Source of the DNA: Promethearchaeota archaeon
GTDB taxonomy: Archaea; Asgardarchaeota; Hermodarchaeia; Hermodarchaeales; Hermodarchaeaceae
Length of the DNA: 64,000 bases
Assembly: GCA_048938385.1 (NCBI GenBank)
Contig: JBHLMG010000001.1
Coordinates: forward strand, 96,001 to 160,000
Reading direction: 5' to 3'
Below are positions 20,195-35,699 of this stretch, piece by piece (within the stretch, counting starts at the first letter, position 1; the number at the start of each line of letters is the position of its first letter). Made by a program: the position numbers and the translations under genes. A model generated the notes under the pieces. It was not told the origin of the DNA, searched no databases, and was given only the letters and a program-made list of their open reading frames with translations.

Positions 20195-21037
20195 ATGGAA
20201 GGAACTCAGAGGGAAGAAACATTGCCTGACTACGAGCTTATTACAAACGAAAAAACTTGGATTCTCCAATCACCAACCCTCAACCAAGCACATACTTTAA
20301 TTACGGCTGCTCTCGCTCAAAAACGTCTAATTCAAATCATAGGGCAGTGCCATGTTGAGTATAAAGGGCGAGCGCGGTCTATCCTGACAAAAGGCGAACG
20401 CCTTGTTATTATTAAACGGGATGGAGCTATTCTGGTTCACCAAGAAAGTGGTGTTGAACCAGTCAACTGGCAACCACCTGGGGCTACAATAAAACTTACC
20501 CACAAAGCTAATCTTCTTCTCTTACAAGCTACTCGCTCGAAACCTAGAGAAAAAGTACATGTCGAATTCTCTTCTCTAGCGATGGTTTCTGCGAGCCTCA
20601 TTGACGACGCCGGTGAGTTCAGTATGTACCTAACTGAAGAAGAAATGCAGCGAATCCTGAGTGCTCACCCTGAACTTATCGAGCCTGGTCTGCGTACAAT
20701 TCGCCGAGAACGCCCTGTCACTCCTGGGTTCATCGATATCTTAGCACATGATGCAAACGGGCAGCTAGTCGTGATCGAACTAAAACGGCGCCGAGCGAAT
20801 AGTGAAGCAGTGTTACAGCTCCATAACTACCTTAAAAGCTTCCAAACAGGAAGTGCTACTCAAATTCGTGGCATTCTCGTCGCTCCCAGTTTAGCTAAAG
20901 GAACTCAGGCACTTCTCGAACAGCTTGGTCTCGAGTTTCGTAAGATCGAGCCACAGCAATGTGCTCAGTACTTACGGGAGTCTAAATCACAGAAACTTAC
21001 TGATTTTGTCAAAGACTCGTTAAAGAACCCAACCTAA
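20195..21037 (+). CDS. nucS: Mismatch-specific endonuclease NucS/EndoMS
   Basis: C.VEYKGRARS.L..GERLVIIK.DG..LVH....EPVNWQPPG, GFIDIL..D..G.LVVIELKR, AVLQL..Y, RGILVAP. Confidence 0.95.
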   Translation: MEGTQREETLPDYELITNEKTWILQSPTLNQAHTLITAALAQKRLIQIIGQCHVEYKGRARSILTKGERLVIIKRDGAILVHQESGVEPVNWQPPGATIKLTHKANLLLLQATRSKPREKVHVEFSSLAMVSASLIDDAGEFSMYLTEEEMQRILSAHPELIEPGLRTIRRERPVTPGFIDILAHDANGQLVVIELKRRRANSEAVLQLHNYLKSFQTGSATQIRGILVAPSLAKGTQALLEQLGLEFRKIEPQQCAQYLRESKSQKLTDFVKDSLKNPT

Positions 21038-21549
21038 CTGATACAGGTCCATGCAATTTGTCGGAAGCCGTCAGTGACGCCTTGGCCTTCCTTTGCGCTA
21101 GTCTCAAAGTATCCCCATCCCACTTGTTGTGCATAAGCCATCCCCTCTTCTGTTGATACCTGTCGTTGGTCAACCAAGTCTACTTTGTTAGCGATTAGAA
21201 CAGATGGAACTGCTCCTGTTACACCTGAAACCTCGCTATACCACCCAGGAATATTATCAAAAGTTTGTCTGCGTGTCACATCAAACACCAAGATCACACC
21301 CGCAGCCCCTCGATAAAATACAGGGCGCACAGAGCTAAAGTGGGGTTGGCCCGCTAAGTCCCATAATTGCAATCGTACTAGCGTGTCTCCAAAATTCAGC
21401 TCTTTAACAGCAAAACTGGTGCCGACCGTCATGATATAAGACTCACGAAAATGCCCTTCTGTATAGCGAATGATAAGACTTGTTTTTCCAACGGCCCCGT
21501 CACCGACGACGCAAACTTTTAGGACATATTGGCGTTGATGTGTACTCAT
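21034..21549 (-). CDS. Rab-like small GTPase
   Basis: G1 GDGAVGKTS, G2 Y.MTVG..F, G3 LQLWDLAGQ, FYRGA, G4 NKVD, G5 ETSAK. Confidence 0.93.
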   Translation of the reverse strand: MSTHQRQYVLKVCVVGDGAVGKTSLIIRYTEGHFRESYIMTVGTSFAVKELNFGDTLVRLQLWDLAGQPHFSSVRPVFYRGAAGVILVFDVTRRQTFDNIPGWYSEVSGVTGAVPSVLIANKVDLVDQRQVSTEEGMAYAQQVGWGYFETSAKEGQGVTDGFRQIAWTCIS

Positions 21550-21717
21550 GAAGCCTTGCTCCTTGTGAGGGCTCGGTTTGTCTGACTTACGCCTGTGTGC
21601 ATATATTGGTTTCGTTCCTCAGGAAGTTTTCTGCTTGGTTCATTAATTTCGCCCAATGATTTTTATGGAGCTGAAGGTTGTAAGGTGCAAGCTAATTCAC
21701 TCGGAGTGCTAACAGAA

Positions 21718-24690
21718 ATGCCAGTTTCCGAAATTCCCAAACAATTCGATTTACCCTCCTTAGAAGAGGATGTACTTCAGTTTTGGCAAGAAAACCAGGT
21801 ATATGAGAAGATCACCGAACAACTCCTTGATCGTCCAATCTTCCAATTCCTTGACGGCCCTCCTTACACCACAGGTTCCATTCATCTCGGAACCGCTTGG
21901 AACAAAATTATGAAAGACTTGGTTTTACGGTTTCACCGGATGCAGGGCTTCCGTGTAATAGATACTCCGGGTTTTGATATGCACGGGTTACCAATTGAAG
22001 TCCATGTAGAAAAAGCTCTGAAAGTTAAATCGAAGCTAGACATTGAAAACAACATTGGCGTAGACAAGTTTATTGAACGATGTCAGGATTTTGCCCTCTT
22101 AAATTTGAATGAGATGACGCAGCAATTCAAACGCTTAGGCGTTTGGATGGACTGGGACCGACCGTATCGGACAATTGACAACCCCTACATTGAGGGCACT
22201 TGGTATTTGATGAAAAGGGCTTCGGAGAAGGGCTTTCTATACCGTGGGCTCCGATCTATAGACTGTTGCATACGATGTGAGACCGCCCTCGCCAAACGCG
22301 AGCATGAATACAAGACAATTGAAGATTATTCGATTTGGGTTAAGTTTCCTGTTTCAGGAAAACCCAACGAGTTTATTGTGATTTGGACTACAACTCCTTG
22401 GACACTACCCGCAAATATGGCTGTAATGGTCAACCCCGAATTCGAATACATCCGAGTAAAGGTTGACGATGAAATATGGATACTAGCGAAGGGGCTAGCT
22501 AACATCATATTACAGGGTCTGTTAAACAAACAATACGAGGTTATAGAGGAGGTCAAGGGAAAGGCGCTTTTAGGGCTTCGTTACGAACATCCCCTGTTAA
22601 AGGAGGTTCCCAAACAAGCAGACTTCCATAACACCTCAAAGAAAGTACATTCCATTGTATTAAGTGAAGAATATGTGACGCTTGAACAAGGGACTGGACT
22701 CGTCCATATGGCTCCTGGACATGGTCCCGAAGACTTCGAGGTGGGCCAGCGTGAAGAAATACCTATCTTCTGCCCTGTGACATTCTCAGGGACTTTCACC
22801 GAAGCGGGTGGAAAATACTCAGGAATGAAAGTTCAAGATGCTAGCGAAGTTATTCTGACCGACCTACGCAAAAAGAACCTCTTAGTTCATCAGGATACGA
22901 TTGAGCATGAATACGCGCACTGTTGGCGTTGCGGCTCACCCTTAGTATACCTTGCTACTGATCAGTGGTTTCTTCGTGTAAGTGATTTACGAGAAGAAAT
23001 CATAAAAAAGAACGAAGGGATTTACTGGGTTCCAGATTGGGCTGGTCACACTTGGTTTCGTAACTGGGTTCAGAATCTTCGAGATTGGTGCATTTCAAGA
23101 CAACGGTATTGGGGGGCTCCTCTCCCAATCTGGATTTGCGATAAGTGTGAGCAAATTGAGGTCGTTGGTAGCGTAGCTGAGTTAAAAGAGAAAGGAGAAA
23201 AAGTCCCTGAGAACCTCCATCGACCTTGGATTGACAATATCATGTGGCCTTGCTCAAAATGTGAGGGCACAATGAAGCGAGTGAATGATGTCTTAGATGT
23301 GTGGTTAGATAGTGGTGTTGCACCCTGGGCAACTCGTTGGGCCACCTATGGCACGACGGACTTTGACAATTGGGTAACGGCTGACTTTGTAATTGAAGGG
23401 AAAGATCAGATCAGTAACTGGTTTAACACTCTCTTTAACTCGACAATGCTTGTTGATAATAGAGAACCATACAAGCGAGTCTACATGCATGGATTTACAG
23501 CCGATGAATTCGGTCGACCTATGTCAAAATCAAAAGGAATTGGCGTCATGCCCGAAGAGGTGGTGGCGAAATTTGGTGCTGAGACGCTACGAATGTACTG
23601 CATTAAAAGCACTGGACCGGGTGAAGACATGACTTTTCTCTGGAAAGATGTAGAAGATACTCGTCGATCTCTCTCCATTCTTTGGAATGTTTATGTCTTT
23701 GCTACGACATTCATGAAAGCCGCAGGTTTCGTTCCTAAAATTCAAACAATTTCAACCAAGGCGTTGCAGAACGAAGACCGTTGGATTCTTTCGCGATTGC
23801 ACCAAATGCTTCAAGAAGTTACCAATCGCTTTGAGAAATACGAACTGCCCTTTGTTCCACGCCTAATGGACGATTTTGTTGTCCGCGACCTTAGTAGGTG
23901 GTATATTAAACTTATCCGATCACGAACATGGGTTAGCTCTACCGACGATACAAAAACACAAGCCTTTAACACCCTCTATTATGTGTTGAGAAGCCTTCTT
24001 GCGATACTTGCTCCAGTTCTTCCCTTCCAAACAGAAAGAATGTACCAAGCTCTCGTTCGCTCCGTTGAACCTGATGCCCCTCTGAGTGTTCACATGCTTC
24101 CTTGGCCGAAGGTCGATACAACGCTAATAGATGTCCAATTAAACCAGGAAATGGATTGGGTTTCAGAAATCGTAGATGCTGTACAATTCATCCGACAAGA
24201 AGAGGGATTGAAACTTCGTTGGCCGTGTAGCCGTCTTGTGATAGTTCCCTCGAAGAAAGAATTCTCCTTGGAGAATTTCAGCGAAGTGGTTGCTAGTCAA
24301 ACTAATGTGAAGCTGGTTGAAATTAAAAATAGAGTGAAAGGTGACAATCTAAAAGAAAAGGAACTTTCCTTTGCTACGGTATACCTTGATGTTTCTGAAA
24401 CAACTGAACTTCGCGCAGAGCGCTTATCTCGTGACCTTATTCGTAGAATTCAAGCAACTCGTAAGAAAGAAGGTTTACATGTTACTCAGCGAATAACGCT
24501 CTATATAGCGGCGCGCCCTCAAAAACTACGAGAAGCCATAGAAGAAACAAGGGCGGCTATAGCATCAAAGGTTGGTGCAACAAAATTAGAAGTGAGCGAT
24601 AAATTACCTCTCCTAGACGGACTCGCTAAGGGTAAGCTTGATTTTGACAACGAGAACATTGAATTCGGTATTTTGCGCAATTCCAAGTAG
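21718..24690 (+). CDS. ileS: Isoleucine--tRNA ligase
   Basis: FLDGPPY, HLGT (HIGH), GFDMHGLPIE, WTTTPWTLPAN, GTGLVHMAPGHG, DWCISRQRYWG, MSKS; ATG 21718 follows a GGAG SD-like sequence. Confidence 0.97.
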   Translation: MPVSEIPKQFDLPSLEEDVLQFWQENQVYEKITEQLLDRPIFQFLDGPPYTTGSIHLGTAWNKIMKDLVLRFHRMQGFRVIDTPGFDMHGLPIEVHVEKALKVKSKLDIENNIGVDKFIERCQDFALLNLNEMTQQFKRLGVWMDWDRPYRTIDNPYIEGTWYLMKRASEKGFLYRGLRSIDCCIRCETALAKREHEYKTIEDYSIWVKFPVSGKPNEFIVIWTTTPWTLPANMAVMVNPEFEYIRVKVDDEIWILAKGLANIILQGLLNKQYEVIEEVKGKALLGLRYEHPLLKEVPKQADFHNTSKKVHSIVLSEEYVTLEQGTGLVHMAPGHGPEDFEVGQREEIPIFCPVTFSGTFTEAGGKYSGMKVQDASEVILTDLRKKNLLVHQDTIEHEYAHCWRCGSPLVYLATDQWFLRVSDLREEIIKKNEGIYWVPDWAGHTWFRNWVQNLRDWCISRQRYWGAPLPIWICDKCEQIEVVGSVAELKEKGEKVPENLHRPWIDNIMWPCSKCEGTMKRVNDVLDVWLDSGVAPWATRWATYGTTDFDNWVTADFVIEGKDQISNWFNTLFNSTMLVDNREPYKRVYMHGFTADEFGRPMSKSKGIGVMPEEVVAKFGAETLRMYCIKSTGPGEDMTFLWKDVEDTRRSLSILWNVYVFATTFMKAAGFVPKIQTISTKALQNEDRWILSRLHQMLQEVTNRFEKYELPFVPRLMDDFVVRDLSRWYIKLIRSRTWVSSTDDTKTQAFNTLYYVLRSLLAILAPVLPFQTERMYQALVRSVEPDAPLSVHMLPWPKVDTTLIDVQLNQEMDWVSEIVDAVQFIRQEEGLKLRWPCSRLVIVPSKKEFSLENFSEVVASQTNVKLVEIKNRVKGDNLKEKELSFATVYLDVSETTELRAERLSRDLIRRIQATRKKEGLHVTQRITLYIAARPQKLREAIEETRAAIASKVGATKLEVSDKLPLLDGLAKGKLDFDNENIEFGILRNSK

Positions 24691-24702: not shown

Positions 24703-24710
24703 ATTTAAAC
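24703..24710 (+). promoter_or_regulatory. Putative TATA box of the tRNA gene
   Basis: ATTTAAAC about 30 nt upstream of the tRNA 5' end. Confidence 0.45.
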
Positions 24711-24738
24711 CCAAATGAAACACGACCCTGTAATTAAT

Positions 24739-24884
24739 GGGCACGTGGCTTAGCCTGATGGAGCGCCGAACTACTACGCATACTGCGTGGTGTGTGTATG
24801 CCTTATATGGTGTCGCTCCGAACATTCAAATGCGAAACCTAGGTAAGCCGGAGGTCGCGGGTTTGAATCCCGCCGTGCCCACCA
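24739..24884 (+). tRNA. tRNA-Ile(UAU) with two BHB introns (24769-24799 at 29/30; 24808-24845 at 37/38) and encoded CCA
   Basis: Acceptor GGGCACG/CGTGCCC + A + CCA; D stem GCTT/GAGC; spliced anticodon arm CCG|GC CT TAT A|A GCCGG; T arm GCGGG TTTGAAT CCCGC; both inserts fold as BHB-type motifs. Confidence 0.88.
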
Positions 24885-24892
24885 TCTTGCTT

Positions 24893-26434
24893 TTAAGCGG
24901 CTCTGCGTTTTCCTTCGAAATCCTTAGCCATGGTTTCAAAGTCTGTACCGAAAGCCGTTTCTTTAGTAAGACGCTTTCTCACCTTGAGAAAAACGGGAAA
25001 ACGTGTGGCTTGACCAACAACAAGCGCCTCTCCAACACTAAGGCTTGAAATAGAAGTTAAGGTGGCTTTGGTGATTTTTTCAGATGTAGCGCGAATATGG
25101 TCTAGATCGTAAGGATTGGTAATTCGGAGAAACACATTGGTCCCACATTGCGATAACACCGTTGTTGAGAGACGAACCGGTCGTTGCGAAATTACGCACA
25201 GAGATAAATTGTACTTTCGACCTTCGCGCGCAACCGTTTCAAGAATACCTTTCGAAAATGCCAAGGCACGACGGGCTTCAGGGCAGAATTGATGGCTCTC
25301 CTCGAGAAAGACAATTGTTGGTGGGATAACTGAATCACGTCGAAGGTCGAATAATCGGCGAAGTACGGCATCGACGATGATCTGTTTTTTCTGCAGATTT
25401 ACAGTGTCACTCATGTCGAGAATCACGGCATGACCAGGTTTCATCATCTTTTCCCAAATGGGTGTGGGGGTCTTACCGAAAAGCCGAAGGTTCTGAAGAT
25501 TGTCCAACCATCCTAAAAGGGCTTCTCGCGTTCGGGTGTTGATTGACGGGTCTTTTTCCAGTGCAGTGATGAGGTCACTAATATCATAAGGTTGCCCTTT
25601 GCGTGCACTTCGCATGGTATGGATTATTCGTGTGAGTTCACGAACCTGGATTGTCCCCATTTCGGGAGAGTAGGTGGCAAACGCTTTGGCGCTCATTTGA
25701 GGGGTAGCTATTTCGATAAGGGGACTCTTGATCATCGAGATTTGGTTCTCGAAGTTGCTTCCATGCTCCTCTATGGGTTCAGCTAGACTAGTGTACTCCC
25801 CGTGTACATCAATTACCAGAATGGCTGGTCGACCTTGGCTAGGTTTTCTCGAAAGTAATTCTTCGAGCATCACTGTCGCAGTGTAGCTTTTACCTGCCCC
25901 GCTCATTGCGAGTAAAGCAACATGCTTTTGAAACATTTTTGTTAAATCAAAGGTTGCAGGGATTCCGTGAAACATGAGTTGACCGAGAAGAACCCCGCCA
26001 GGCGTGAATCCAAGAAACTTCGACAAAATTTTAGGATCCGGTGTAGCTACAATGGCCCCGGGTGAGGGGGGAAATGTTACTCGTTGAACTTCTCCCTTGT
26101 TGTATATGCCAAGCGGCTTAGCCTCAGCAACCACATACTCCCACCGATCAATCGGAAAAATCGCTCCAAAAGCCTTGCCAGAACGAGTGAACTCGTGGAC
26201 CGCATCGATTTGAGCGAAGTAGCGATTGGTTTTGTAAACCTGCTCAATGTGGGCAATGACTAATCCTTCTTCGGTTTCCGTCGAGACATATTGTCCAACA
26301 TGAACTGGAATTCCATCCCTAATTGTTGGGTCATCCTGTTTTCCAATGACAAATACAACATTCTCCGTAGAAGGACCATTTTCTGTACAGACAACAGTTC
26401 CAAGGGGATTGGGATTCATTGTCAAGTTCAACAC
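24893..26434 (-). CDS. herA: HerA DNA translocase/helicase
   Basis: N-terminal HAS barrel, HVALLAMSGAGKSYT, IDVHGEY, LEESHQF, AREGRKY...ISQRP..L...VLSQC; adjacent to nurA. Confidence 0.92.
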   Translation of the reverse strand: MLNLTMNPNPLGTVVCTENGPSTENVVFVIGKQDDPTIRDGIPVHVGQYVSTETEEGLVIAHIEQVYKTNRYFAQIDAVHEFTRSGKAFGAIFPIDRWEYVVAEAKPLGIYNKGEVQRVTFPPSPGAIVATPDPKILSKFLGFTPGGVLLGQLMFHGIPATFDLTKMFQKHVALLAMSGAGKSYTATVMLEELLSRKPSQGRPAILVIDVHGEYTSLAEPIEEHGSNFENQISMIKSPLIEIATPQMSAKAFATYSPEMGTIQVRELTRIIHTMRSARKGQPYDISDLITALEKDPSINTRTREALLGWLDNLQNLRLFGKTPTPIWEKMMKPGHAVILDMSDTVNLQKKQIIVDAVLRRLFDLRRDSVIPPTIVFLEESHQFCPEARRALAFSKGILETVAREGRKYNLSLCVISQRPVRLSTTVLSQCGTNVFLRITNPYDLDHIRATSEKITKATLTSISSLSVGEALVVGQATRFPVFLKVRKRLTKETAFGTDFETMAKDFEGKRRAA

Positions 26435-35411: not shown

Positions 35412-35699
35412 TCATCCTCGTAGGACGATGAGGATATAATCTTCTTCAGGCGCAACCATGACTTCTCCCTGTGGAGTTGAGATTGTAAGAAAGTTCATTC
35501 CACCTTCGCCAAGTTCGTCGACTACGCGTTTAGCTTTGCCTACTAGTGATGTAACGAGGGCAGAAATAACCTCAGTTTTCTCTGCGTTTAGGTTGGAGCT
35601 GATTGGTAGGCCTTCCATGTTGGTAATGATAACGCCTCGCACTCCTTCGTGTGCACCGAGGCGTTTGAGTGAGTCTTTCAACGCTTTTCCGCCAATCAT
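35412..35699 (-). CDS. Roadblock/LC7 protein (dynein light chain roadblock-like, 95 aa)
   Basis: [45 protein letters not shown]. Confidence 0.88.

Follow-up and report, generated by a model that had tools for sequence, protein, structure and literature searches.

Positions 24739-24884 of the window (the whole stretch of 64,000 nucleotides that was analyzed) very probably, with a probability of roughly 0.9, hold a tRNA-Ile(UAU) gene that is interrupted by two introns, preceded by a promoter-like box, spliced by EndA, and serves as the AUA reader of an Asgard archaeon devoid of TiaS. The isoleucine/methionine codon box is a well-known point of weakness in the genetic code, for which the three domains of life are usually credited with three solutions. 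In the scheme that we propose, this gene, which directly follows ileS and has a promoter-like box of its own, would be the only tRNA-Ile(UAU) gene of the genome. A two-subunit EndA of the (alpha-beta)2 type would cut the transcript at two BHB motifs, a strict one at position 37/38 and a relaxed one at 29/30, ligation would yield a 77-nt tRNA with the anticodon UAU, and the IleRS encoded next door would presumably charge it; both splicing and isoleucine charging are what we infer from the sequence. The UAU tRNA would then read AUA, leaving AUU and AUC to tRNA-Ile(GAU) and AUG to two CAU tRNAs, none of which would carry agmatidine since the lineage is devoid of TiaS.

The gene and its locus

The features of the locus are as follows.

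21595-24690, + strand: ileS, isoleucine--tRNA ligase, 1031 aa (NCBIfam TIGR00392, 906.7 bits against a cut-off of 621)
24706-24711, + strand: TTTAAA box, preceded by CCAACACA, 28-33 nt before the tRNA start (read from the sequence)
24739-24768, + strand: exon 1, with the acceptor 5' strand, the D arm and anticodon-stem positions 27-29 (Rfam alignment, ARAGORN fold)
24769-24799, + strand: intron 1, 31 nt, at position 29/30, with a relaxed BHB
24800-24807, + strand: exon 2, positions 30-37 (GC + CUUAUA), the anticodon U34 A35 U36 being 24804-24806
24808-24845, + strand: intron 2, 38 nt, at the canonical position 37/38, with a strict hBHBh' motif
24846-24884, + strand: exon 3, with position 38, the anticodon-stem 3' strand, the variable loop, the T arm, the acceptor 3' strand and A73
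24882-24884, + strand: encoded CCA, at the 3' end of exon 3

The Rfam tRNA model RF00005 reports a match at 24739-24881 on the + strand (39.6 bits against a gathering score of 29) that covers all of its 71 positions (1-71) and accommodates an 80-nt insertion within the anticodon arm. When 24739-24768, 24800-24807 and 24846-24884 are joined, ARAGORN folds the resulting 77 nt into a regular cloverleaf and assigns it to tRNA-Ile(tat). In this fold, the anticodon arm reads CCGGC-CUUAUAA-GCCGG, with a 7-nt loop carrying U33 and a purine at position 37, the acceptor stem is GGGCACG/CGUGCCC, and the variable loop is AGGUC. The T arm is GCGGG-UUUGAAU-CCCGC, the discriminator base is A73, and the CCA end is encoded. 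The original prediction of a two-intron tRNA-Ile(UAU) following ileS is thereby borne out by the Rfam score and by the spliced cloverleaf, and so is its description of the gene as hidden. Indeed, ARAGORN in its default mode, which allows no introns, returns zero tRNAs across the whole window, and ARAGORN -i, which allows a single anticodon-loop intron, misses the gene when run genome-wide. It is also not among the 23 tRNAs returned by the Rfam whole-genome search.

The T and D loops depart from the usual tRNA pattern. At 24864, in the T loop UUUGAAU, U56 replaces the near-universal C56, and the orthologues of other Asgard classes keep UUCGAAU. The D-loop bases 24757-24758 are G18 and A19, an A thus occupying the usual place of G19, and the tertiary pair 19:56 seems to have changed from G:C into A:U throughout the Hermodarchaeota-like family. 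The matching of U56 by A19 argues for a tRNA that would be in working order.

A spacer of 48 nt separates ileS from the tRNA. Loci L094-L097 and L018 also carry the motif CCAACAC(A)nTTTAA ahead of their orthologous tRNA, and the TTTAAA box together with CCAACACA is likely the tRNA's own archaeal TATA/BRE promoter. Among the neighbours, 20195-21037 (+) encodes a NucS endonuclease (281 bits), 21034-21549 (-) a small GTP-binding protein, and 24893-26434 (-) a HerA-like helicase that scores below the family cut-offs. The ORF that overlaps the tRNA, 24737-25048, is probably an artefact.

The two introns and their BHB motifs

Intron 2 displays all the elements of a strict hBHBh' motif, namely a 4-bp central helix, 3-nt bulges on opposite strands, each with its predicted cut after the second base, and flanking helices. 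Its central helix, as read from the sequence, pairs C32 U33 U34 A35 (24802-24805) with UAGG (24840-24843), and its two 3-nt bulges are UA^U and UA^A; re-reading the sequence thus gives the same CUUA/UAGG helix and bulges on which a full BHB had been proposed. The inner helix is GG.(U)CGC / GCG(A).CC (2+4 bp), while the outer helix is the anticodon stem itself, which counts 2 bp before the removal of intron 1 and 5 bp after it.

In intron 1, the exon bases GCGC (24763-24766) pair with the intron bases GUGU (24794-24797) to form a 4-bp central helix. It is accompanied by the bulges CG^A and AU^G and by a 2-bp inner helix (24770-24771 with 24792-24793), beyond which lies a variable hairpin. No outer helix is present, the first outer position (A24762/C24801) being mismatched, and the central helix engages the D stem on its 3' strand, a point that we count against the preferred explanation. 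Since the outer helix is missing and the D-stem strand is engaged, the motif is a relaxed one: the central helix and both bulges are there, and one flanking helix is absent. The relaxed BHB suggested earlier for this intron thus stands, the re-read GCGC/GUGU helix being paired in 16/16 sequences. Its junction is unambiguous, because G24800 and C24801 alone can complete the 5-bp anticodon stem.

G24800 is contested, as it is a bulge base of intron 1 and an outer-helix base of intron 2. Since both motifs compete for this base, it is plausible that the two introns are cut sequentially. Nevertheless, intron 2 is not dependent on intron 1 as far as sequence comparison goes, because the relative at locus L010, which lacks intron 1, retains an intron 2 that matches in length, position and flanking arm. 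Folding by minimum free energy, applied to the precursor and to the intermediates, returned neither the cloverleaf nor the BHB registers, and is not used as evidence in either direction. Within the Hermodarchaeota-like family, the sequence of intron 2 is far better conserved than that of intron 1, including loop bases that are dispensable for the BHB helices; inspection of intron 2 by eye revealed no C/D-box motifs.

Conservation and covariation in the Hermodarchaeota-like family

By its IleRS relatives (67-82% identity), the genome belongs to the Hermodarchaeota-like Asgard archaea, and the tRNA follows ileS in eleven of these loci. A pattern built on exon 2, intron 2 and exon 3, with 19 bases specified, finds the gene in 17/19 genomes of the family, once in each; it returns nothing in 282 other Asgard genomes and nothing when read backwards. 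All three exons are identical in 13 distinct genus-level sequences, the variation being confined to the introns. These identical exons, this intron-only variation, and the specificity of the pattern for the family indicate that the gene is more than a chance match. Exon 2 is invariant not only in the 17 family genomes but also in the orthologues of the Odin-, Atabey- and Borr-named genomes and of LC30.

The structure proposed for the precursor was assessed by counting pairs in an alignment of 16 sequences. In total, 95% of the cells are paired, compared with 20-51% after shifting the partners by one to three columns. In eight pairs, all of them in the inner helix and hairpin of intron 1, both sides have changed, and 0/500 shuffles attain a covariation score as high as the observed one. 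The central helix of intron 1 is paired in 16/16 sequences, and the inner-helix pair A24770:U24793 of this intron becomes G:C in two sister-genus sequences. For intron 2, the central and inner helices are 97-100% paired, and genome G114 has C:G in place of the inner pair U24813:A24835. In other classes, the central strand of intron 2 is UGAG or UAAG instead of UAGG and still pairs with the fixed CUUA. Lastly, the acceptor pair 5:68 is A:U here and C:G in the sister genus, a compensatory change that argues for a tRNA likely to be functional.

Probable AUA decoding without TiaS

The TiaS_FLD profile (PF08489) has no match in this genome, which is 89.8% complete, and is found in the four archaeal control genomes. 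It is equally missing from the Hermodarchaeota-like family (0/18 genomes). Using two full-length Asgard TiaS proteins as tblastn queries against this genome, the best hit has an E-value of 1.1; the same two proteins retrieve one another at 1e-96 to 1e-121. The search for tiaS that the original prediction had put forward as a check thus retrieves no such gene by either method.

As for the other tRNAs of the codon box, a tRNA-Ile(GAU) is encoded at G000:C23:8349-8479. It carries introns in the D loop and T loop and none at 37/38, which is the reverse of its UAU isoacceptor, and it is missed by both ARAGORN and the Rfam whole-genome search. Two CAU tRNAs are present, an initiator-like one at C23:25226-25365 and an elongator-type one at C23:189153-189298. 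The companion check, a search for tRNA-Ile(CAU), gives a more qualified answer: no third CAU tRNA is seen, in a catalogue that is partial (32 candidates from ARAGORN -i and 23 from Rfam in a genome 89.8% complete). The ARAGORN -i set includes false genes, and our own scans, based on the T arm with acceptor pairing, on BHB-guided splicing and on anticodon-arm searches, were noisy and recovered part of the tRNA set. Among the ARAGORN -i candidates, a tRNA-Ile(aat) at G000:C34:21263-21408 was discarded as a false positive, with a poor fold, a 99-nt product and a long extra arm.

In a set of 698 long ORFs, AUA accounts for 10.6 per 1000 codons and for 14% of the isoleucine codons. Opposite the 17 AUA codons of ileS, 14 homologues have I/V/L, as they do opposite AUU/AUC, while they have M at the AUG sites. 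These figures show that AUA is in use and indicate, indirectly, that it means isoleucine. With TiaS found neither here nor in any of 18 family genomes, and with AUA behaving as an isoleucine codon, the earlier proposal that a UAU tRNA replaces the TiaS/agmatidine route is supported.

The splicing endonuclease

Two EndA-domain genes are found in the genome (PF01974, 107 and 67 bits). The 186-aa protein displays the Tyr/His/Lys pattern and aligns end-to-end with the 186-aa catalytic chains 3p1z_B and 3ajv_B (6e-46). The 204-aa protein is devoid of the His and also matches the structural chains 3iey_B, 3p1z_A and 3ajv_A; in a pairwise alignment, the His of the 186-aa EndA faces the residues NEA of the 204-aa one. 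The catalytic EndA possesses a 9-residue insert after GFYG that is absent from its paralogue. We take 3p1z, 3ajv and 3iey to be the Aeropyrum and Nanoarchaeum endonucleases, which are made of two subunits, and the insert presumably sits at the place of the Crenarchaea-specific loop. The genome thus encodes two separate EndA paralogues, one of the catalytic and one of the structural type, which supports a predicted two-subunit enzyme of the (alpha-beta)2 type, the kind known for broad specificity. Such an enzyme fits an intron at 29/30, and the broad-specificity endonuclease that had been postulated from the tRNA alone finds its counterpart in these two paralogues, whose closest solved relatives are the catalytic and structural subunits of two-subunit enzymes.

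The structural EndA gene lies within a cluster of intron-bearing tRNA genes. The elongator-type tRNA(CAU) at C23:189153-189298 contains a 49-nt intron at 37/38 and a second intron in the T loop, and adjoins a tRNA-Thr(GGU). About 1 kb from it are the structural EndA paralogue, a tRNA-Tyr and a tRNA-Asp (C23:190407-190667 was also noted).

Distribution among the Asgard archaea

TiaS (PF08489) is present in 172/301 Asgard genomes and missing from 129/301, and its distribution follows families. It is absent from seven of them (0/68, 0/18, 0/7, 0/5, 0/4, 0/3 and 0/3 genomes) and present in others (68/76, 25/29, 21/21 and 11/11). Every sampled genome of the Hermod-like and Thor-like families is devoid of it, as are the genomes named Odin, Atabey, Borr, Hermod, Thor, Sif and Harpocratesius and two genomes labelled 'Hod', while a Baldrarchaeum genome possesses it.

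The arm CCGGC-CUUAUA-[28-38 nt]-A-GCCGG occurs just downstream of ileS in an Odinarchaeota MAG, in Atabeyarchaeum deiterrae, in Borrarchaeum weybense, in the unplaced MAG isolate LC30 and in the sister Hermod genus, with one strand of the arm diverged or interrupted in Atabeyarchaeum. The intron at 37/38 is always present in these ileS-linked UAU orthologues. Other introns vary: the one at 29/30 is found in part of the Hermodarchaeota-like family, a D-loop intron in L010, and a T-loop intron in L010, L012, L018 and L096. The pairing of ileS with tRNA-Ile(UAU) is seen across several Asgard classes (loci L010, L012, L015, L016, L017, L018, L020 and L096), and the extra introns, located in the D loop, at 29/30, in the variable region or in the T loop, differ by lineage. 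By their positions, these extra introns look like repeated gains on one orthologous gene.

A generic pattern combining the UAU arm with a canonical intron was run on five TiaS-less genomes and abandoned, as it returned a single false match. The UAU tRNAs of other lineages were then sought by means of Rfam matches and ARAGORN. The TiaS-less family of 68 genomes is Thor-like, the IleRS of its member G008 sharing 78% identity with its counterpart in a Thorarchaeota MAG, and G008 encodes an intron-containing tRNA-Ile(tat). The closed Harpocratesius genome, also without TiaS, does so too. In G302, a genome labelled 'Hodarchaeota', there is no UAU tRNA among eight tRNA regions, a list that is far from complete and uninformative either way.

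Published tRNA tables of complete genomes contain both kinds of tRNA. That of Atabeyarchaeia-2 contains the entry 'Ile TAT, 35441-35652, two introns, possible pseudo' along with Met and iMet, and no Ile2, while that of the Freyarchaeia genome contains Ile2(CAT) and no TAT (PMC11291895 Supplementary Data 4). According to our coordinates, the Atabeyarchaeia-2 gene lies directly after ileS. Among the genomes examined, the UAU tRNA and the TiaS/Ile2 system look like alternatives.

Alternative explanations and significance

If the segment were a decaying or non-functional tRNA copy, AUA would have to be read otherwise. Three facts would suit this view: the Atabeyarchaeia orthologue is flagged 'possible pseudo' by tRNAscan-SE (52.4 bits), the T loop has U56 for C56, and standard tRNA finders miss the gene. 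However, U56 is matched by A19, and the exons stay identical across the 13 genus-level sequences, whereas the introns diverge and show compensatory changes. Moreover, the position of the gene and its anticodon arm are conserved in at least five Asgard lineages, each genome holds one copy, and no other AUA decoder was found, so that decay has a very small probability. Even less probable is a different pair of splice junctions yielding another anticodon, such as UGU (Thr). This option arises from ARAGORN -i, which, once intron 1 is removed, sets the 38-nt intron one position earlier and calls Thr(tgt). That junction has no BHB, as its central strand UGCC is unable to pair with ACCU, whereas the motif at 37/38 is perfect and conserved in all relatives. 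Among the BHB-guided splice products searched, only the UAU product gives a clean 77-nt cloverleaf, and the genome already encodes a tRNA-Thr(UGU) at C23:186498-186569.

The last alternative leaves the UAU tRNA intact and changes its role: AUA would be read mainly by a CAU tRNA modified at C34 by an enzyme unrelated to TiaS, the UAU tRNA being redundant or otherwise used. The elongator-type CAU tRNA at C23:189153 does share 18/20 D-arm bases with the UAU tRNA, and the tRNA catalogue is incomplete. Against this stand the two CAU tRNAs found, which are the minimum for AUG initiation and elongation, and the contrast offered by the published tables (PMC11291895 supplement), where the complete TiaS-less Atabeyarchaeia genome has Met, iMet and Ile-TAT but no Ile2, and Freyarchaeia has Ile2(CAT) without a TAT tRNA. 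We consider this alternative highly improbable, although less so than the two others, and retain the two-intron tRNA-Ile(UAU) as the AUA reader.

On this preferred reading, a large part of the Asgard archaea, as judged from the 129/301 genomes missing TiaS, gave up the archaeal solution for AUA. In the TiaS-less Asgard lineages the UAU tRNA always comes with the canonical intron, as in eukaryotes, and in several classes its gene sits beside that of its own synthetase. These lineages offer tractable natural cases for studying how an archaeal U34 avoids AUG, whether an intron is needed for anticodon modification, and whether IleRS and the anticodon have co-evolved. They also carry a warning for annotation: because standard tRNA finders miss or down-rate the gene, AUA will be wrongly reported as unreadable in these organisms.

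Comparison with known systems

A UAU tRNA in place of TiaS and tRNA-Ile2 has been described in Nanoarchaeum equitans and Korarchaeum cryptofilum, an older survey counting tRNA-Ile(UAU) in 2/167 genomes (PMC6000648), and in ARMAN an intron-containing pre-tRNA-Ile(UAU) is cut in vitro (PMC3239211). The present gene shares with those of Nanoarchaeum, Korarchaeum and ARMAN-2/-4/-5 the UAU anticodon and the missing tiaS (PMC6000648; PMC3239211). The tRNA-Ile2(CAU) is missing in Nanoarchaeum, Korarchaeum and ARMAN, and none is seen here in a partial catalogue. The strict hBHBh' intron at 37/38 is another common trait, shown for ARMAN-2 and stated for Korarchaeum, as is an endonuclease of the broad-specificity type, predicted here from sequence. 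In contrast to these archaea, the gene belongs to the Asgard phylum, has a second intron at 29/30, and is tightly linked to ileS across several classes; the endonuclease of ARMAN is an epsilon2 enzyme, whereas two separate subunits are encoded here. The qualification of this tRNA as rare in archaea agrees with older surveys (2/167; PMC6000648) but does not extend to the Asgard phylum, where the UAU tRNA is common.

The resemblance to eukaryotes had also been emphasized. Both systems use a UAU anticodon for AUA, place an intron one base 3' of the anticodon, and have the 3' part of the intron pair with the anticodon loop. The gene of the eukaryotic cytosolic tRNA-Ile(UAU) is intron-bearing, and its pseudouridines are made on the intron-bearing precursor, which is the eukaryotic answer to the reading of AUG by U34. 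The resulting eukaryotic anticodon is Psi-A-Psi (PMC8879553). Unlike in eukaryotes, the partner isoacceptor is here tRNA-Ile(GAU) and not AAU/IAU, and the endonuclease is an archaeal EndA and not TSEN. The term eukaryote-like therefore holds for the resemblance only, the closest kin being the TiaS-less archaea already described, with a GAU partner in the present genome. The TiaS-less Asgard lineages with a UAU tRNA are not, to our knowledge, among those usually regarded as the nearest to eukaryotes. For this reason, and because the partner is GAU and not IAU, common descent with the eukaryotic AUA system is unlikely, and convergence is the simpler reading. Similarly doubtful is the broader proposal that the 37/38 intron is obligatory in all tRNA-Ile(UAU), whether archaeal or eukaryotic, that the helix which it forms with the anticodon in the precursor is the substrate for a U34/U36 modification blocking AUG, namely pseudouridine as in eukaryotes, and that the Asgard system is ancestral to the eukaryotic one.

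In bacteria, Mycoplasma mobile has likewise lost its C34-modifying enzyme and compensates with a UAU tRNA, but that tRNA-Ile(UAU) is intronless and it was TilS, not TiaS, that disappeared (PMC3575796). Regarding the Asgard archaea themselves, the heavy interruption of their tRNA genes has been published (PMC11291895; bioRxiv 10.64898/2026.10.13.758758). The genes reported there likewise contain several BHB introns each, many of them non-canonical and overlooked by standard software, and most of the genomes concerned possess two EndA paralogues, as does this one. The main texts of these two studies do not mention UAU, TiaS or AUA, and the Atabeyarchaeia orthologue appears in PMC11291895 as one line of a supplementary table, flagged 'possible pseudo'. 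Our literature searches (Asgard with agmatidine; Asgard with tRNA introns) found no discussion of UAU/TiaS in this phylum. The breadth of TiaS loss in Asgard archaea, the conserved linkage between ileS and the tRNA, and the constancy of the canonical intron thus seem to be unreported, while the replacement of TiaS by a UAU tRNA is already known in some archaea, to which the Asgard case adds.
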